From Thermodesulfovibrionales bacterium (lineage in GTDB: Bacteria; Nitrospirota; Thermodesulfovibrionia; Thermodesulfovibrionales; SM23-35), in the NCBI GenBank assembly GCA_963715195.1, contig CAVQRT010000007.1:1-64000 (forward strand): a stretch of 64,000 nt of DNA. The letters run 5' to 3'. Positions 9,001 through 17,971 of the stretch are shown here, one piece after another (within the stretch, counting starts at the first letter, position 1; each line of letters opens with the position of its first letter). Made by a program: the position numbers.

Positions 9001-12000
9001 GTCCCTTCAACAAAACGAGATCATTTCAATCAAATTACAGTTTAACTACATTGACCGCCTTGGGACCTTTGTCGCCTTTTTCCATATCAAAGCTAACTTT
9101 GTCACCTTCAGCAAGGCTCTTAAAACCACTGCCTTGGATGGACGTGTGGTGGACAAAAACATCAGTGCCGTCTTCAGCAGTAATAAATCCGAACCCTTTA
9201 CTCTCGTTAAACCATTTCACAGTTCCTTGCGCCATTTCACTTGTCTCCTTTTTTTATAAAACTAAAATTACACCATATTATGCAGGTGTCTCCATCAAAT
9301 GTGAATTGTCATTTCAAATAAGCATAATTATATCAGGTTTAAGCGGTCTAAAGTTCAGGAAGTCATTATCCCTGCGTGTTTCCAAAGGTAGTCTTGCCCA
9401 CCCCAAAAAGTCTCCAGGCGTGCATATTTGCACAGGAAATAAATAATATGCAGATGCTGGAGGGATAATCATTCCTATGTGAATGATGACTATCAGATTA
9501 TCGGACCACGACCATTATTCCTGGACGAAATAAATGGCATCACTCGGGGTAACACAGGCTTGCCCGTGGGTATCTACATAGATCAGCTTTTCTACTGGTA
9601 TACCATTGAAGCAATTTTTACCGTCAGGTCCCCCAGCATGTTCGTATAACTTCCCAATTCGTTATCATACCAGCCGTAGATGACCGTATTCGTAATCGGG
9701 ATTTCAGGATCGGCAGGAACTGCTGACAAAGTTTCAGCCGGAAGCTTCAAGTGCTTGCCGACATCCAGGGAAATATAAGCTGTTCTTGTATGTGTCTCAT
9801 GACCTTCAATAATGGCAGCCGGTCCAATAAGCCCTATGATATCTGATGATACGTTTTGCTCATTGGTATATTTAATGTATCCTCTCTTTTCCCTCTTTGC
9901 AGCCTCCTTATAAATATTGTTGATCAGTTCAGCATTCACCGGTGGCTTGTCTATCTCGTCACGGAGGGTTATCACAAGAATAATCAGGGAACCGGTAGTG
10001 ATGGGGATGCGGACCGATTCCGCCATGAACCCAATCCTGTTCATCTCAGGTATAACCAGCCCCAGCGTTTTCGCAGCACCTGTGGTCGTCAGGATGATAT
10101 TGTTCATCACGCTCCTTGATTTTCTTAAATCAGTAGCTCCGGCCTTGGGAAGGCGGTCAAGAACCTCCTGTGTGCCTGTGCTCGAATGGATTGTATCCAT
10201 GGAGGCGCTGATGATCTTTTCAGGGCCGAAATAATCCATAAGAGGTTTCACCATATGCCCAAGACAGGTTGTCGTACAAGACGCACCGGAAATGATTTGG
10301 TGCTTTGCATGATTGTATTCTTCCTCATTAATACCCATGACGACTGTGATGATGTCGGACGGCATAGGGATATTCTTATCTTTCACTTTGAACGGTGCGG
10401 AGATTATGACTTTTTCCGCTCCTGCTTCCAGATGCCCGCGCACTGAACCCTCTGCCGCATCAAACGGAACCGTGGGATTTGTGAATTTCCCAGTGGCCTC
10501 AACGACAACCTTCGCACCATGGTTTTTCCACGGTATATTTCTTGGGTTGCGGGACTCTCTCAGCACTGTTACCGGTATTCCGTCTATTTTCATCTTGCCG
10601 TTCTGTTCATCAATATCAGTGATAATGCGCTCTGCCGAGTATCCGTACAGATAATGATGCAGGGAGCCGTATGTTGAGTCCTTTTCTATATATAGCGCAA
10701 CATCCTGGAGTTTTGTCCCTGATTTTCTCCCGATATTTACAACGATTTCAGAAAAACGTTTTCTTGCAATGTGGTTCCAGAGGGTCAGCTTGCCGATTCT
10801 GCCGAGGCCATTGATCCCGAGAACGGATTTTTTGTCAGTGAACGGTTTAGCCTTGATTTTTCCTGCCATTTCTCTTCCCCTTTCTGAACGGTTATTAAAT
10901 GGGTTCCCTGCTTCGTTTTTCCAATACTGTTATTATATCACCAGTGTTACAACTTCGGCGCTGTTTCGGCCTTTATTTCCTGTGTTTGATGCCTCCCGGC
11001 AAAAACCGACCCGTTCCGGCCGTCAATACTCAGGAAGTCGCCTACCTTAATGAAGCGTTTGTTGATCCTGCATCTTTTTTCCTGCTCCCATACAATCAAG
11101 TTATTACAGCCAACCACGCAGGTCTTCCCTAAACGGTTGGCAATAATGGAGGCATGAGATGTTGATCCGCCGCGGGCGGTAAGTAATCCATCTGCAGCGG
11201 AAATATGTCTGATATCATCTGGGACCGTATCGGCGCGTATTAAAATGAGAGGCGTTAAGGGATCCTTCTCCCTGAGATCCTGGATTTCATTCAAATCAAA
11301 GACAGCCTTGCCGCTCAGGGCACCGCCACCGACACCGATGCCCCGCGAAAGATAACTCGATGAAAGCTTCTTCGACGGGAGAAATGCCATAAAACTCTCT
11401 TCGCGTTTGAGTGCCATATCGCGTGTCTGCAGGATATAGAGATTGTCAGGATTTTTACCCTCGAAGGTGAATTCAATTTCCTGTGCGCCCCACCGCTCAC
11501 GGTAAATAAGATCTTTGCTGATCTGCAGAAGGGTGTTATAGAGTTCAGGAAACGTATCCTCAAAGGAAATCTCTGCAGAACGGTCTTCATATGGTTTCTG
11601 TTCATTCGACATTGCCAGCGTTCTTACCAGTCCTGAAACAATGTCCTCTCCCTGGGCACCAATTGCAAAGTCTCCCCAGAGCATAACTCGGTCCCCTGTC
11701 TCCTGTGGATTTCGGGTGAAGAGGACCCCGGTCCCTGAATTTATATCCAGATTACCGTAGGCCATTGCCTGCACGATAACAGCGGTTCCCCAGTTTTCGG
11801 AAATATTCATGATTTCACGGTATGCCTGGGCTTTTAGGGAATCCCAGGACTGAAAGACCTGTTCGATTGCTATCTCAAGTTGGGTGTATGGATCATCGGT
11901 AATTTCGATGCCGTTGTCCTTGACGGATGCACGGTAGGAGAGTGCCAATTCCCGCATCTGATCAGGTGAGAACTGGATTTTTCGCAGAACCTTAAACTTG

Positions 12001-15000: not shown

Positions 15001-17971
15001 CGCATTTCGCGGAAAAGCGGATCGGCAGCACTCAGGATGCCGGGATAATCTTTTATGATATCCCGGAGGATTTCATATCGGTGCTGCGCATCTGTTTGAA
15101 CGGGATCAGCCATTCTGAAATCTCCTCAATCATTATATAATACGATAAAGTGATATTTGGCACATGAAAATATGTGAGCTGTTTACCAGCATTCAGGGGG
15201 AATCGAGTTTTGCGGGCATGCCGTGTTTTTTTATACGGCTTTCCGGTTGCAATCTCAGATGCTCATACTGTGATACTACTTATGCATACGAAGATGGGAT
15301 TGAATTTACAGAAGAGGAAATCTTAAAGAAAGTCAGGAATGCAGGAATGAATCTTGTCGAAGTCACCGGTGGGGAACCCCTGATCCAACCAGAGGTATAT
15401 CATATGATACAGATGCTTCTCGAAGAGGGGCGGTCGGTTTTACTCGAGACAAACGGTTCACAAAGCATTAGGGGAGTTGATAGAAGGGCAATCATTATAC
15501 TCGACATAAAGACACCAGGAAGCGGAATGAGTGGCAGAATGGATTTTTCAAATCTTGATGCGATTGGGAAACATGATGAAGTGAAGTTTGTCATTACAGA
15601 CAGGAATGATTATGAATGGGCAAAGGACATCATGCATACCTTTCGTCTTGCTCAAAAATGCAGTCTCCTTATTTCGCCTGCTTTCGGCTTTACCCGTGCG
15701 GAAGACCTTGCACGATGGATGATCGATGATAGACTCCCTGCACGTTTGAATCTCCAGCTTCATAAATATATATTTGGTTCTGAAAAAAGAAGAGTATAAT
15801 TGTAATATGCAAAACAGTGGTGCAAGCGCATGAAAGGGAACTTTCCGCATCTCCCCGAACGGATTTCAGGGCTCGCAGATATTGCATACAATCTCTGGTG
15901 GAGCTGGCATCCTTCTGCAAGAATGCTCTTTAAGCTTTTGGACAGGATTGCGTGGAAGGAAAGTGGGCATAATCCTGTCGGAATGCTGAAAGACCTTCCT
16001 GCTGAGATCTTGATCTCAGCTGCACAAAATCCTGATTATCTGAATCATTACGATTCTGTGATGTTACAGTTCCATGAAGATATCGAAACCAGGATTTGCT
16101 GGTTTGCAGAGAATGTACGGGAGGCGAGCTGCCATCCCGTTGCATTCTTTTCTGCTGAATACGGACTGCATCGTTCCCTGCCGTTTTATGCGGGTGGATT
16201 AGGATTCCTGGCAGGAGATTATATCAAGGAATGCAGTGACCTCGGTGTCCCTGTGGTTGCGATGGGATTCATGTATCCGGAAGGATATCTTCGACAGAAG
16301 ATAAGAATGGACGGATGGCAGGATGATGTGCGTGAAGTCCTTGACAGGGACGCAGCTCCCATTGAGCGGGTCCTCAACGAAAAGGGTGAACAAATTATTG
16401 TCAGGGTTCCTTTCATGGAGCCACCGATTTATATAGCAGTCTGGAAGGTGGCCGTCGGGAAGATTCCTTTGTACCTTATGGATACGGATATTGAGCAGAA
16501 TGAACCATGGAATAGAGGAATCACTGCTCGGCTTTATATAGGTGATGTCGAACAACGTCTCCGTCAGGAGATGGTGCTCGGAATTGGTGGCATAGCAGTA
16601 CTGGACAACCTCAAAATCAGGCATTCCATTATACATCTTAACGAGGGGCACTCTGCCTTTGCAATTTTGGAGCGCATCAGGGAGAGGATTGAAGCAGGGA
16701 CTGCATTTAAGGACGCAGTCGAACAGACCCGGGCAACCACCGTATTCACTACTCATACCCCTGTGCCTGCGGGTCATGATGTCTTTCCATTTCATCTCAT
16801 GGACAAGTATTTCATGCATTGTTATCCCTTTCTTGGACTGACCCGTGAGCAATTCCTCGAGATGGGAACGAATCCGAAAGAGCCCGGAGCAGGCTTCAAC
16901 ATGACGACATTCTCCCTGAGGTTGTCCGCTTATACCAATAGTGTTAGCAGAAAACATGGCGAAGTGACACGAAGGATGTGGCACCATTTGTGGCCCGAGA
17001 GGAAAGATGATGATGTCCCGATCATCTCTATCACCAATGGTATCCATGTGCCCACATGGGTTGAACCGAAGATCGAGCTCCTTTTCAATAAATATCTTGG
17101 TCCAAGGTGGCGCGAAGAACAGGATGATCCTGCAGTATGGGAGTTGATCGATACAATTCCGGACCAGGAATTATGGAAAGTCCATTACTGGCTGAAGATA
17201 AAGTTGTTAAACTTTGTCAGGGAACAGGCTCGCAGACGCTGGATCGAAAACAGGGTAAATCCGGTTAACATCATTTCCAACGGAGTATTGCTTGATCCGA
17301 CAGCACTCACCATTGGTTTTGCACGGCGCTTTGCTGCGTATAAAAGGGCGGATCTCATCTTCAGAAATCCGGATCGATTGAAGGGAATTTTAAATCACCG
17401 CTGGCGGCCTCTCCAGATCATATTTGCGGGTAAATCTCACCCTGCTGATGATGAAGGGAAGAGGATACTGCAGAGAATATTTACTCTCGCGCACGATCCT
17501 GAACTGAGCGGAAGAATTGCCTTTGTTGAGAACTATGATGAGCAGCTCGCCCAATACATGGTTCACGGTGTCGATCTCTGGCTCAATAATCCGATGCCCC
17601 CGCTGGAAGCATGCGGAACGAGCGGAATGAAGGCGACGCTGAACAGCGTTCCTCACCTCAGCATTCTTGACGGGTGGTGGATTGAGGGTTTCAGCGGGAA
17701 GAACGGGTGGGCTTTTTCCGGCGATGGGGATGAGAGGGATGCAGAGGCTATGTATCAGCTCCTCGAAACAGAGATCGTTCCCCTGTATTACAAGCTCGAT
17801 GATTCCGGTATTCCGATTGACTGGGTGAAAATTATGAAGCAGGCAATCAAGCATACTGGTGCACAGTTTAGCGCGCGCCGCATGGTAAAAGAATATGCAT
17901 TGACTTTCTATCAGAATGCCATGAAATCGGTGTCGTAAATGATCGAATGGTGAAGATGCTCCCGGTAGTAA

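Follow-up and report, generated by a model that had tools for sequence, protein, structure and literature searches.

Pyruvate, phosphate dikinase (PPDK; EC 2.7.9.1; TIGR01828; C. symbiosum structures 1KBL and 1DIK) is built from an ATP-grasp nucleotide-binding domain, a phospho-histidine swivel domain and a TIM barrel. Phosphoglycerate kinase (PGK; PF00162) uses ATP/ADP and forms no phospho-enzyme, and GapA and GapB of B. subtilis constitute a two-isoenzyme GAPDH system. The first two domains of PPDK recur in PEP synthase, in rifampin phosphotransferase (PMC4844700) and in the two-component Rhodococcus Hpe kinase (PMC12167813), each with a different acceptor-binding part; going by PDB titles and paper listings, the latter two act on small-molecule acceptors. 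VadK (Rv1127c) of Mycobacterium tuberculosis is a barrel-less PPDK derivative of about 50 kDa; it has been shown to be a regulatory kinase that phosphorylates itself on His422, brings down two enzymes of the methylcitrate cycle in pull-downs and adjusts flux (PMC13400623).

The locus described here lies in a window of 64,000 nucleotides (the whole stretch of DNA analysed, from a Thermodesulfovibrionales bacterium) and contains a dikinase-like gene, DIK, followed by a long GAPDH paralog, gap2. Both frames lie where the initial annotation put them and have the lengths it gave. The features were as follows.

9592..10869, minus strand: gap2, long GAPDH paralog, 425 aa (Pfam, NCBIfam, PDB alignment, sequence comparison)
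10870..10946, minus strand: DIK-gap2 spacer, 77 nt (sequence; purine-rich stretch before ATG)
10947..15113, minus strand: DIK, dikinase-like gene, 1388 aa (ORF and translation; Pfam, NCBIfam; homologs)
10950..11408, minus strand: phospho-histidine swivel domain of DIK, residues 1236-1388 (PEP-utilizers; 1KBL alignment)
11409..12443, minus strand: PPDK-type ATP-grasp nucleotide-binding domain, residues 891-1235 (PPDK_N; TIGR01828; 1KBL alignment)
12444..14015, minus strand: conserved orphan core, residues 367-890 (alignment A1; paralogs; AF2)
14016..15113, minus strand: helical-repeat N-terminal arm, residues 1-366 (AF2 model; paralog comparison)
15114..15163, no strand: short divergent intergenic region between DIK and the radical-SAM gene
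15164-15799, plus strand: radical-SAM gene, divergent neighbour of DIK
15830-17938, plus strand: alpha-glucan phosphorylase gene (glgP), next after the radical-SAM gene

The spacer ends in a purine-rich ribosome-binding stretch in front of gap2, and a search of its 77 nt for a terminator-like site found none.

The C-terminal part of DIK carries the ATP-grasp and swivel domains of PPDK without the barrel, as first annotated. Pfam placed PPDK_N at residues 937-1164 (E 1.6e-30) and PEP-utilizers at 1289-1368 (E 6e-17). Residues 17-515 of C. symbiosum PPDK aligned to DIK 891-1388 (E 3e-86), with 1KBL residues 17-337 on DIK 891-1235 and 380-515 on 1236-1388. Strings matching PPDK in the nucleotide domain were LGNKGHNL, SVRSGGAISMPGMM, YRRFLQ, EIEFTF and LQTRD. 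The GGSTSHA motif of DIK was aligned to GGMTSHA of PPDK, His under His; His1320 in this motif (codon 11154-11156) is the presumed catalytic His, and DIK presumably runs the first two partial reactions of PPDK. TIGR01828 scored 400 bits, short of its cut-off of 843, and spanned only positions 16-335 of 865; the PEP synthase models were far below this score (72-86 bits). The 534-position NCBIfam model NF004531, which we take to be of the VadK type, gave 322.8 bits (cut-off 456). Foldseek matched DIK to 1KBL with 34% identity and an rmsd of 2.9 A over 543 columns, and below PPDK to 2OLS, 5HV1-5HV6, 5FBS-5FBU and 9GOJ (13-16% identity). The PEP/pyruvate barrel (PF02896) was absent from DIK by Pfam; elsewhere in the genome it was found in a 902-aa frame on contig C7, about 160 kb away, and in a 799-aa frame on contig C3. 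The AF2 model follows 1KBL in seating the His domain on the ATP-grasp domain and is therefore silent on docking to the orphan core.

In place of the PPDK barrel, DIK has an unrelated, all-helical N-terminal domain of 890 aa; within the phospho-histidine dikinase superfamily, DIK is a new type with three domains. The earlier statement that these 890 residues have no detectable relative in Pfam or the PDB was confirmed. Before residue 937 Pfam returned nothing credible (best match PWWP, E 0.012, below its cut-off), the NCBIfam scan of the 890 aa gave zero matches, phmmer against PDB sequences gave a best match of E 0.33, and a structure search with the AF2 model of the domain (all-helical, pLDDT 89.9, pTM 0.86) returned no specific fold relative. 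The acceptor domains of PEP synthase, rifampin phosphotransferase and Hpe kinase are likewise unrelated to DIK 1-890.

Homologs of this N-terminal region number 1942. Across 59 sequences with identity down to 23% (alignment A1), 18 residues of the orphan domain are invariant and about 40 are nearly so, most of them polar or charged. Those invariant in the core are H388, D426, R470, D477, R491, K492, H495, K601, Y602, H671, S678, R832 and D845, and a beta-hairpin (residues 663-684) bears the motif KRHIAAGIPS.YG. Judged from the alignment, this pattern is that of a catalytic pocket, and the core (residues 367-890) with its hairpin is presumed to be the phosphoryl-acceptor site. Residues 1-366 were modelled as helices only and have 10-26% identity to a paralogous dikinase family; this arm is specific to the GAPDH-linked subfamily.

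The paralogs kept the invariant polar core of DIK in 12 sequences at about 30% identity, and their first 450-500 aa or so are unrelated to the DIK N-terminus. They have no link to GAPDH, and gap2 was present in 0 of 16 paralog-only genomes. Because the invariant residues are kept without that link, the shared pocket need not bind a GAPDH metabolite. Several core positions differ between DIK and the paralogs (T427 to D/E, D428 to R/K, E466 to T/S, H488 to Y, E497 to N) and could set specificity. Two family members, P0153 and P0159, have an N-terminal Hemerythrin domain by Pfam (E 3e-12 and 4e-8); in the distant subclade to which they belong, all 21 metagenome loci that could be assessed have gap2 immediately downstream.

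The partner gene was described initially as a divergent GAPDH with its catalytic Cys and about 33% identity to canonical Gap, which agrees with the 32-35% found here against the canonical gap of relatives. It has both domains of type I phosphorylating GAPDH (Gp_dh_N and Gp_dh_C by Pfam) and scored 322.9 bits with TIGR01534, under the cut-off of 367.2. The catalytic pair, Cys198 (codon 10276-10278) and His228, is invariant in 32 gap2 sequences (alignment A3), as are Thr231, Arg249/Arg252, Thr261/Thr263 and Arg287, and gap2 keeps the two anion sites that a G3P/1,3-BPG enzyme has. As read from these residues, gap2 is a real phosphorylating GAPDH. It differs from type I GAPDH by about 90 additional residues in six insertions, about 40 of them before the C-terminal WYDNE motif (34 long against 25 canonical sequences). 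There is no conservation at the position of the NAD-specifying Asp, and after the second strand comes an invariant N-x-G-R-x-x-G, which hints at use of NADP(H).

A locus scan confirmed at least 227 DIK loci among 782 pattern matches, and the family was found in Nitrospirota, Desulfobacterota, Magnetococcales and Acidobacteriota with GAPDH as partner. The initial annotation placed gap2 next to DIK in almost every relative; this stands for close relatives and does not extend to the whole family. A more distant sample comprised 80 loci from species genomes. Of these, 64 had at least 1.5 kb downstream, where gap2 lay on the same strand as DIK in 21/64 and convergent to it in 13/64. Canonical gap lay directly upstream in 21 of the 63 loci with upstream sequence, and some GAPDH gene was within 1.1 kb in 45 of the 57 loci with both flanks. 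The link was kept through three gene orders. Orders seen include gap-DIK-gap2-pgk-tpi-secG (L013, L049, L051, L063), DIK-gap2-gap-pgk-tpi (L004, L067) and, in Desulfobulbaceae, glgA-gap-DIK, where gap2 is located elsewhere at the head of pgk-tpi (5/5 genomes of this type carried gap2 away from DIK). Among 121 genomes of the order, all 32 with a DIK ortholog had gap2; gap2 occurred without DIK in 3 and DIK without gap2 in none. In the loci examined, the metabolic neighbours common across lineages were GAPDH, pgk, tpi and secG and no other. A conserved dikinase-GAPDH module, as proposed earlier, is thus more strongly supported by the three orders, the co-occurrence and the gap-pgk-tpi-secG clusters, and a literature search for this family found no publication. 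The pairing is with GAPDH and is not confined to the divergent paralog, Desulfobulbaceae DIK following canonical gap. Since the partner is canonical gap in one lineage and gap2 in others, cofactor and direction are unreadable from it. The tie across phyla suggests that lower glycolysis or sugar synthesis has a step or control point not yet described.

Of the 121 genomes, 119 had PGK; the exceptions were the present assembly and a single DIK-less genome. All DIK genomes examined, bar the present incomplete assembly, thus encode PGK as well, and canonical gap coexists with gap2 in relatives, a pairing that may be likened to GapA/GapB. The neighbours of gap-pgk in relatives were not found in the present assembly either, which supports the earlier view that its missing gap and pgk reflect an assembly gap. 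PGK is not replaced by DIK, and its presence in 119/121 genomes leaves no missing step for DIK to fill.

With a probability of roughly 0.4, DIK is a dikinase interconverting 3-phosphoglycerate and 1,3-bisphosphoglycerate beside GAPDH. The ATP-grasp domain would use ATP to phosphorylate His1320, probably with Pi/PPi as in PPDK, and the swivel would carry the phosphoryl group to the invariant Asp/Glu/Arg/Lys/His site of the orphan core (about residues 370-890), which would stand in for the PEP/pyruvate barrel. From gene context, the most likely acceptor would be 3-phosphoglycerate, in a PGK-parallel step: 3-PG + ATP + Pi <-> 1,3-bisphosphoglycerate + AMP + PPi. GAPDH would make or consume the labile acyl phosphate, and docking of GAPDH on the arm (residues 1-366) may allow direct transfer of the intermediate. 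The free energies of hydrolysis of 1,3-BPG (about -49 kJ/mol) and of ATP to AMP + PPi (about -46 kJ/mol) would place this reaction near equilibrium and make it usable either way, with gluconeogenic drive and recovery of ATP from AMP + PPi in glycogen breakdown as candidate directions. PGK is a functional analogue only, sharing the operon neighbourhood (gap, pgk-tpi-secG) and the proposed 1,3-BPG; PF00162 was not found in DIK by Pfam, and hence there is no sequence relation. Operon position fits the PGK-like acyl-phosphate reaction suggested initially by analogy with PGK and GAPDH; the near-universal PGK weighs against it, and an 890-residue domain is oversized for accepting a C3 acid.

A regulatory role like that of VadK is the main rival reading and is less probable; several observations suit it. 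DIK would autophosphorylate on His1320, its helical domain would bind GAPDH, and flux at the triose-phosphate node would be tuned by binding or phosphorylating the enzyme or an effector, with no pathway step catalysed; in some lineages the fused hemerythrin domain would respond to O2, redox state or iron. Protein binding is a typical role of helical repeats, and the architecture of DIK is all-helical and repeat-like. Co-folding of DIK 1-370 with gap2 gave weak support for a contact (score 0.59; runs 0.61, 0.44 and 0.59; best of three controls 0.00), with at least 82% agreement in contacts between the runs and partner pLDDT of at least 87; this prediction counts equally for the 3-phosphoglycerate reading. 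The calibration mark was reached by 116/157 solved complexes and 2/215 mismatches, and scores up to 0.60 took in only 18 of the 157 complexes and both passing mismatches. PGK and canonical gap leave no catalytic gap, and the hemerythrin-fused members, whose subclade retains gap2, together with the VadK precedent (PMC13400623), point by analogy towards sensing or regulation. VadK has the same PPDK-derived domains without barrel, but it has no third domain, and its partners are methylcitrate-cycle enzymes in actinobacteria, whereas DIK has a conserved 890-aa domain and a GAPDH partner. The dozens of invariant charged residues, kept in GAPDH-unlinked paralogs, suit an active site more than they suit a docking surface; going by PDB titles and literature listings, PPDK, PEP synthase, rifampin phosphotransferase and Hpe kinase bind a small-molecule acceptor through a further domain or subunit, and genes within gap-pgk-tpi operons typically encode pathway enzymes.

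It is unlikely that DIK is a metabolic dikinase acting on a different small molecule at or near the triose node (glycerate, glyceraldehyde, dihydroxyacetone, or a carboxylate giving a different acyl phosphate), with GAPDH a pathway neighbour and not a direct partner. The structural case for a catalytic acceptor domain serves this reading and the 3-phosphoglycerate one equally; paralogs with the same core residues in other contexts suggest a family of related acceptors, the differing core positions could distinguish them, and two lineages have glycogen genes nearby (here glgP and a GH57 branching enzyme gene; in Desulfobulbaceae glgA, upstream). Against this, gap2 retains both G3P/1,3-BPG anion sites, co-occurrence is strict with GAPDH and not with glycerate or triose kinases, and the shared metabolic neighbours are those of the gap-pgk-tpi-secG cluster.

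That DIK phosphorylates a polymer (glycogen or polyphosphate bound by the helical domain), as plant glucan, water dikinase does, is very improbable: glgP adjoins it divergently, a GH57 branching enzyme lies 9 kb off in the window, glgA precedes gap-DIK in Desulfobulbaceae and DIK is similar in overall size to glucan, water dikinases, but their domain order is different, Pfam found no carbohydrate-binding module in DIK, and the conserved partner is GAPDH and no glycogen enzyme. The radical-SAM and glgP neighbours recur only in the closest of 80 related loci, L002.

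The dikinase-like protein (DIK, 1388 aa) and the long GAPDH paralog downstream of it (gap2, 425 aa) were located by translation of open reading frames, and lie among the following features.

DIK locus and its neighbours in the window
10947..15113, minus strand: DIK, 1388 aa (ORF translation)
9592..10869, minus strand: gap2, 425 aa (ORF translation)
15164-17938, plus strand: small radical-SAM gene and alpha-glucan phosphorylase, upstream of DIK and divergent
24119-25735, plus strand: GH57 branching enzyme, 9 kb further on

DIK and gap2 are separated by a spacer of 77 nt, with a purine-rich stretch at its end before the ATG. 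No terminator-like site was found between the two genes, and the counts of a promoter/terminator scan were not above those of shuffles. Three contigs of one estuary metatranscriptome library were identical to 9601-9958, 10978-11211 and 13332-13549 (parts of gap2 and DIK); they are compatible with expression of both genes, not proof of it, as DNA carry-over is possible and no transcript ends are visible.

The C-terminal half of DIK was compared with PPDK and other dikinases. Pfam placed PPDK_N (PF01326, the ATP-grasp domain) at residues 937-1164 (E 1.6e-30) and PEP-utilizers (the swivel domain) at 1289-1368 (E 6e-17), with no credible match before residue 937. Residues 17-515 of C. symbiosum PPDK aligned to 891-1388 of DIK (E 3e-86), the ATP-grasp part corresponding to residues 17-337 of the PPDK structure 1KBL; GGSTSHA at 1315-1321 (with His1320) falls under GGMTSHA of PPDK, and the strings of the nucleotide site are kept. 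Residues 340-1388 were modelled with AlphaFold2 (pLDDT 91.6), which gave a conformer with the His domain placed on the ATP-grasp domain; in a Foldseek search this model superposed on 1KBL with an rmsd of 2.9 A at 34% identity, the alignment taking in only about 543 columns of PPDK. PEP synthase and rifampin phosphotransferase came next, at 13-16% identity. The PPDK-type unit of ATP-grasp domain and swivel histidine is intact in DIK. DIK has this unit in common with PPDK (TIGR01828 / EC 2.7.9.1; motif GGxTSHA) but is without the C-terminal barrel: Pfam found no PEP/pyruvate TIM barrel (PF02896), and the protein ends about 70 residues past His1320. DIK scored 400.1 bits against TIGR01828, short of the cut-off of 843.45, covering the first 335 model positions only, and 72-86 bits against the NCBIfam models of PEP synthase. 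Since the barrel is absent from DIK and present in two other proteins of the same genome, DIK is not the organism's PPDK.

Residues 1-890 matched no NCBIfam family, and their best match in a sequence search of the PDB had an E value of 0.33. For the orphan domain, a language-model protein atlas returned nothing above 0.78, and fold relatives were discarded as candidates, because Foldseek against the PDB gave karyopherin/CRM1-type solenoids only (TM of at most 0.17). The N-terminal region had 1942 homologs in a collection clustered at 90%, nearly all of 1380-1400 aa; clustering at 50% left 508 representatives, of which 190 had E values no worse than 1e-30. Across 59 sequences, with identity as low as 23%, eighteen columns were invariant (H388, D426, P457, G467, R470, D477, R491, K492, H495, K601, Y602, L650, H671, S678, G681, G740, R832 and D845) and about 40 more were nearly so, with a concentration at 420-500 and in the hairpin KRHIAAGIPS.YG at 663-684. 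DIK has a third domain that is conserved and confidently folded, and its invariant charged residues make up a set like that of an active site. A search for Rosetta-stone fusions found no fused forms longer than 2430 aa, which is weak evidence.

Subfamilies were distinguished among 121 genomes of the order to which the window belongs, the N-terminal region of DIK being matched in 48. Orthologs were present in 32 (full length, about 1360-1400 aa, 35-72% identity) and a paralog only in 16; two genomes had both. The paralogs (1400-1510 aa) match DIK from about 355 to 1373 at 27-30% identity, and their first 450-500 residues or so are unrelated. Nearly all invariant polar residues are retained in them (W380, H388, D426, Q431, R470, T474, D477, D484, R491, K492, H495, K601, Y602, E664, K669, R670, H671, S678, Y683, E685 and D845), with deviations at T427, D428, E466, H488 and E497. 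As the residues of the core are kept and the N-termini are unrelated, DIK from about 367 to 890 is probably a catalytic core common to both subfamilies and residues 1-366 are, judged by these alignments, an arm specific to the GAPDH-linked one. The neighbours of the paralogs were diverse (among them cytochrome oxidase, nuo, TrmO and HAD, with no GAPDH) and offered no lead to function.

Paralog loci
L082-L093, in genomes G105, G042, G001, G041, G087, G015, G063, G004, G074, G084, G007 and G066

The gap2 protein matched Gp_dh_N (E 4e-17) and Gp_dh_C (E 1e-25) in Pfam and scored 322.9 bits against TIGR01534 (type I GAPDH), below the cut-off of 367.2; by NCBI's rule it is a divergent subfamily and not an equivalog. 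For comparison, 34 long and 25 canonical sequences from related loci were aligned, together with 1VC2. Cys198 and His228 of gap2 were invariant in 32 sequences. The strings SCT, HxxT, RxxR, TTGAA and RxP, which presumably belong to the substrate-phosphate and inorganic-phosphate sites, are retained relative to 1VC2 and the 25 canonical sequences. Since both catalytic residues (Cys and His) are kept, as are those of the phosphate sites, gap2 is most likely a genuine phosphorylating glyceraldehyde-3-phosphate dehydrogenase. It carries six insertions (about 90 residues in all) and has no conserved Asp at the position that specifies NAD, with an invariant N-x-G-R-x-x-G in its place, and its cofactor preference is perhaps altered. 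In-frame stops in three copies, namely G031:C57 (one TGA), G068:C7 (one TAA) and G093:C182 (one TAG and one TAA), reflect either decay or sequencing errors; G031 is one of three genomes with gap2 and without DIK.

Linkage to GAPDH was scored in 80 loci from species genomes, which are distant relatives because they were retrieved with the alignment. A same-strand gap2 lay directly downstream of DIK in 21 of the 64 loci whose downstream sequence reached 1.5 kb or more (Nitrospirota, Syntrophobacteria, Thermodesulfobacteriales and Magnetococcales), and a convergent gap2 in 13 of the 64 (Smithella, Syntrophorhabdus and Aminicenantales). The canonical gap gene (334 aa) was directly upstream on the same strand in 21/63 loci with at least 1.3 kb of upstream sequence, mostly in Desulfobulbaceae, with glgA before gap. 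Where both flanks were available, a GAPDH gene was found within 1.1 kb of DIK in 45 of 57 loci, and on each side in 5. The order in Syntrophobacteria was gap-DIK-gap2-pgk-tpi-secG or DIK-gap2-gap-pgk-tpi. In five genomes in which DIK was not beside gap2, gap2 was elsewhere (5/5), and in four of them it headed a gap2-pgk-tpi cluster (identified by Pfam in one of the four and by BLAST in the others). In a distant metagenomic subclade gap2 was downstream in 21/21 assessable loci, the remaining 3 of 24 ending too soon. Among the 121 genomes of the order, gap2 was present in 35, that is in all 32 with a DIK ortholog and in 3 others, and in 0/16 with a paralog only; these co-occurrence counts overstate independence, because the sampled genomes are kin. 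No remnants of DIK were seen beside gap2 in two of the 3 others, and in the third the contig ends 120 nt upstream. The genomic coupling of DIK to GAPDH and to the gap-pgk-tpi cluster is tight, and a stronger argument than the counts is that the link has lasted across several phyla and three rearrangements.

Glycogen genes are near DIK in two lineages, in the present window and in Desulfobulbaceae (glgA-gap-DIK; for example L027, L035, L039 and L044); glgP as a neighbour of DIK recurs in 1/80 loci only.

It is very probable that DIK stands for a real, conserved and GAPDH-linked family that is undescribed. In the open-access literature (PMC and bioRxiv), neither the family nor a PPi/AMP-linked phosphoglycerate kinase or dikinase was found described, and the names given to the homologs are limited to 'pyruvate, orthophosphate dikinase' and 'PEP/pyruvate-binding domain-containing protein'. 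The annotation 'pyruvate, phosphate dikinase' is wrong for metabolic reconstruction of these environmentally important anaerobes. The family ranges over Nitrospirota, Desulfobacterota (including cable bacteria), Magnetococcales and Acidobacteriota, with its genes forming part of gap-pgk-tpi operons. Lower glycolysis/gluconeogenesis is regarded as completely catalogued; so widespread a family would bring to this node a reaction or else a control device that is new, and to the swivelling-histidine dikinases a new acceptor domain with a fold that has no recognised relative.

Physical association was modelled by co-folding DIK 1-370 with gap2, each entered as an alignment, alongside three controls. 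The pair scored 0.59 (runs 0.61, 0.44 and 0.59) and the best control 0.00; the verdict was weak support, on a scale where the mark is reached by 116/157 solved complexes and 2/215 mismatches, and at scores of 0.60 or less by only 18/157 solved complexes and by both of the passing mismatches. At least 82% of contacts agreed between runs, with a partner pLDDT of at least 87. Because conserved adjacency makes binding plausible beforehand, the score may be taken as a modest plus for a DIK-GAPDH complex, on which the channelling and the regulatory readings both rely.

The preferred reading, to which a probability of about 0.4 is assigned, is that DIK is a 3-PG/1,3-BPG dikinase working with GAPDH. 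His1320 would be phosphorylated at the expense of ATP, with Pi/PPi probably taking part as they do in PPDK, and the swivel domain would pass the phosphoryl group to the orphan core. Genomic context suggests that the acceptor may be 3-PG, giving 1,3-BPG that GAPDH would then reduce; in reverse, 1,3-BPG made by GAPDH could drive formation of ATP from AMP and PPi. By textbook free energies, the proposed reaction would lie near equilibrium. A fuller version is tentative and on the doubtful side: a 'phosphoglycerate, phosphate dikinase' (1,3-BPG + AMP + PPi <-> 3-PG + ATP + Pi) acting in a channelling complex where the helical arm is the docking site of GAPDH, and forming a second route parallel to PGK that is gated by hemerythrin in some lineages. 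If correct, this would be a reaction previously unknown in central carbon metabolism and would offer sulfate reducers, syntrophs, cable bacteria and Nitrospirota, as energy-limited anaerobes, a route beside PGK that recovers ATP from metabolic AMP and PPi or drives gluconeogenesis irreversibly, with an O2/redox sensor as its gate in some lineages.

A regulatory kinase is the alternative to be weighed first, and is rather unlikely. A lead towards it comes from two family representatives (P0153 and P0159), in which a hemerythrin domain (PF01814) stands N-terminal to the whole DIK architecture and suggests control by O2, redox or iron; in the subclade of these members (loci L107-L109, L120, L124 and L127) gap2 is still directly downstream. 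A precedent is VadK of M. tuberculosis, which is described as a barrel-less derivative of PPDK that autophosphorylates on the swivel His in an ATP/Mg-dependent manner, binds enzymes belonging to the methylcitrate cycle and tunes their flux (PMC13400623); the residues needed for this autophosphorylation are present in DIK. In that source VadK consists of two domains, ATP-grasp and His, of about 50 kDa (PMC13400623), whereas DIK adds a conserved domain of 890 aa. A dikinase for another small acceptor, which would use the same phospho-histidine unit and orphan core, is unlikely. A polymer acceptor is highly improbable. Glucan, water dikinase has N-terminal carbohydrate-binding modules, and residues 1-890 of DIK contain no such family in Pfam and none among the fold matches, although a divergent module is possible.

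DIK was rejected as a replacement for a lost PGK because PGK was found in 119/121 genomes of the order; PF00162 was not matched in DIK by Pfam, so any likeness to PGK would be in reaction only. In the present assembly (G000; 97.8% complete, 36 contigs) neither PGK nor canonical gap was found, and tpi-secG lies mid-contig without pgk (C8:19770-20495). The initial annotation had ascribed this to an assembly gap, and the guess was supported by the relatives, in which gap-pgk is a separate locus flanked by a gene of 416 aa and one of 142 aa (each conserved at 82-87% identity between relatives): neither flanking gene was found here, so that true loss was rejected in favour of an assembly or binning gap, and probably at least 6 kb of the genome went unassembled or unbinned. 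Both types of gap were present in each of five relatives.

Two further features of gene content were recorded. Many of the order's genomes have a second, divergent gene of the PGK family, which scores about 265-280 bits where the main one scores about 540 and lies in frames of 431-511 aa; it is found alongside DIK as well as in its absence (for example G066:C146, G096:C30, G021:C114 and G037:C22). A small GNAT acetyltransferase gene recurs in Syntrophobacteria and Desulfobulbaceae beside gap, DIK or gap2, being upstream of gap-DIK in L008, L013, L049, L051 and L063 and between gap2 and pgk in L103 and L104.
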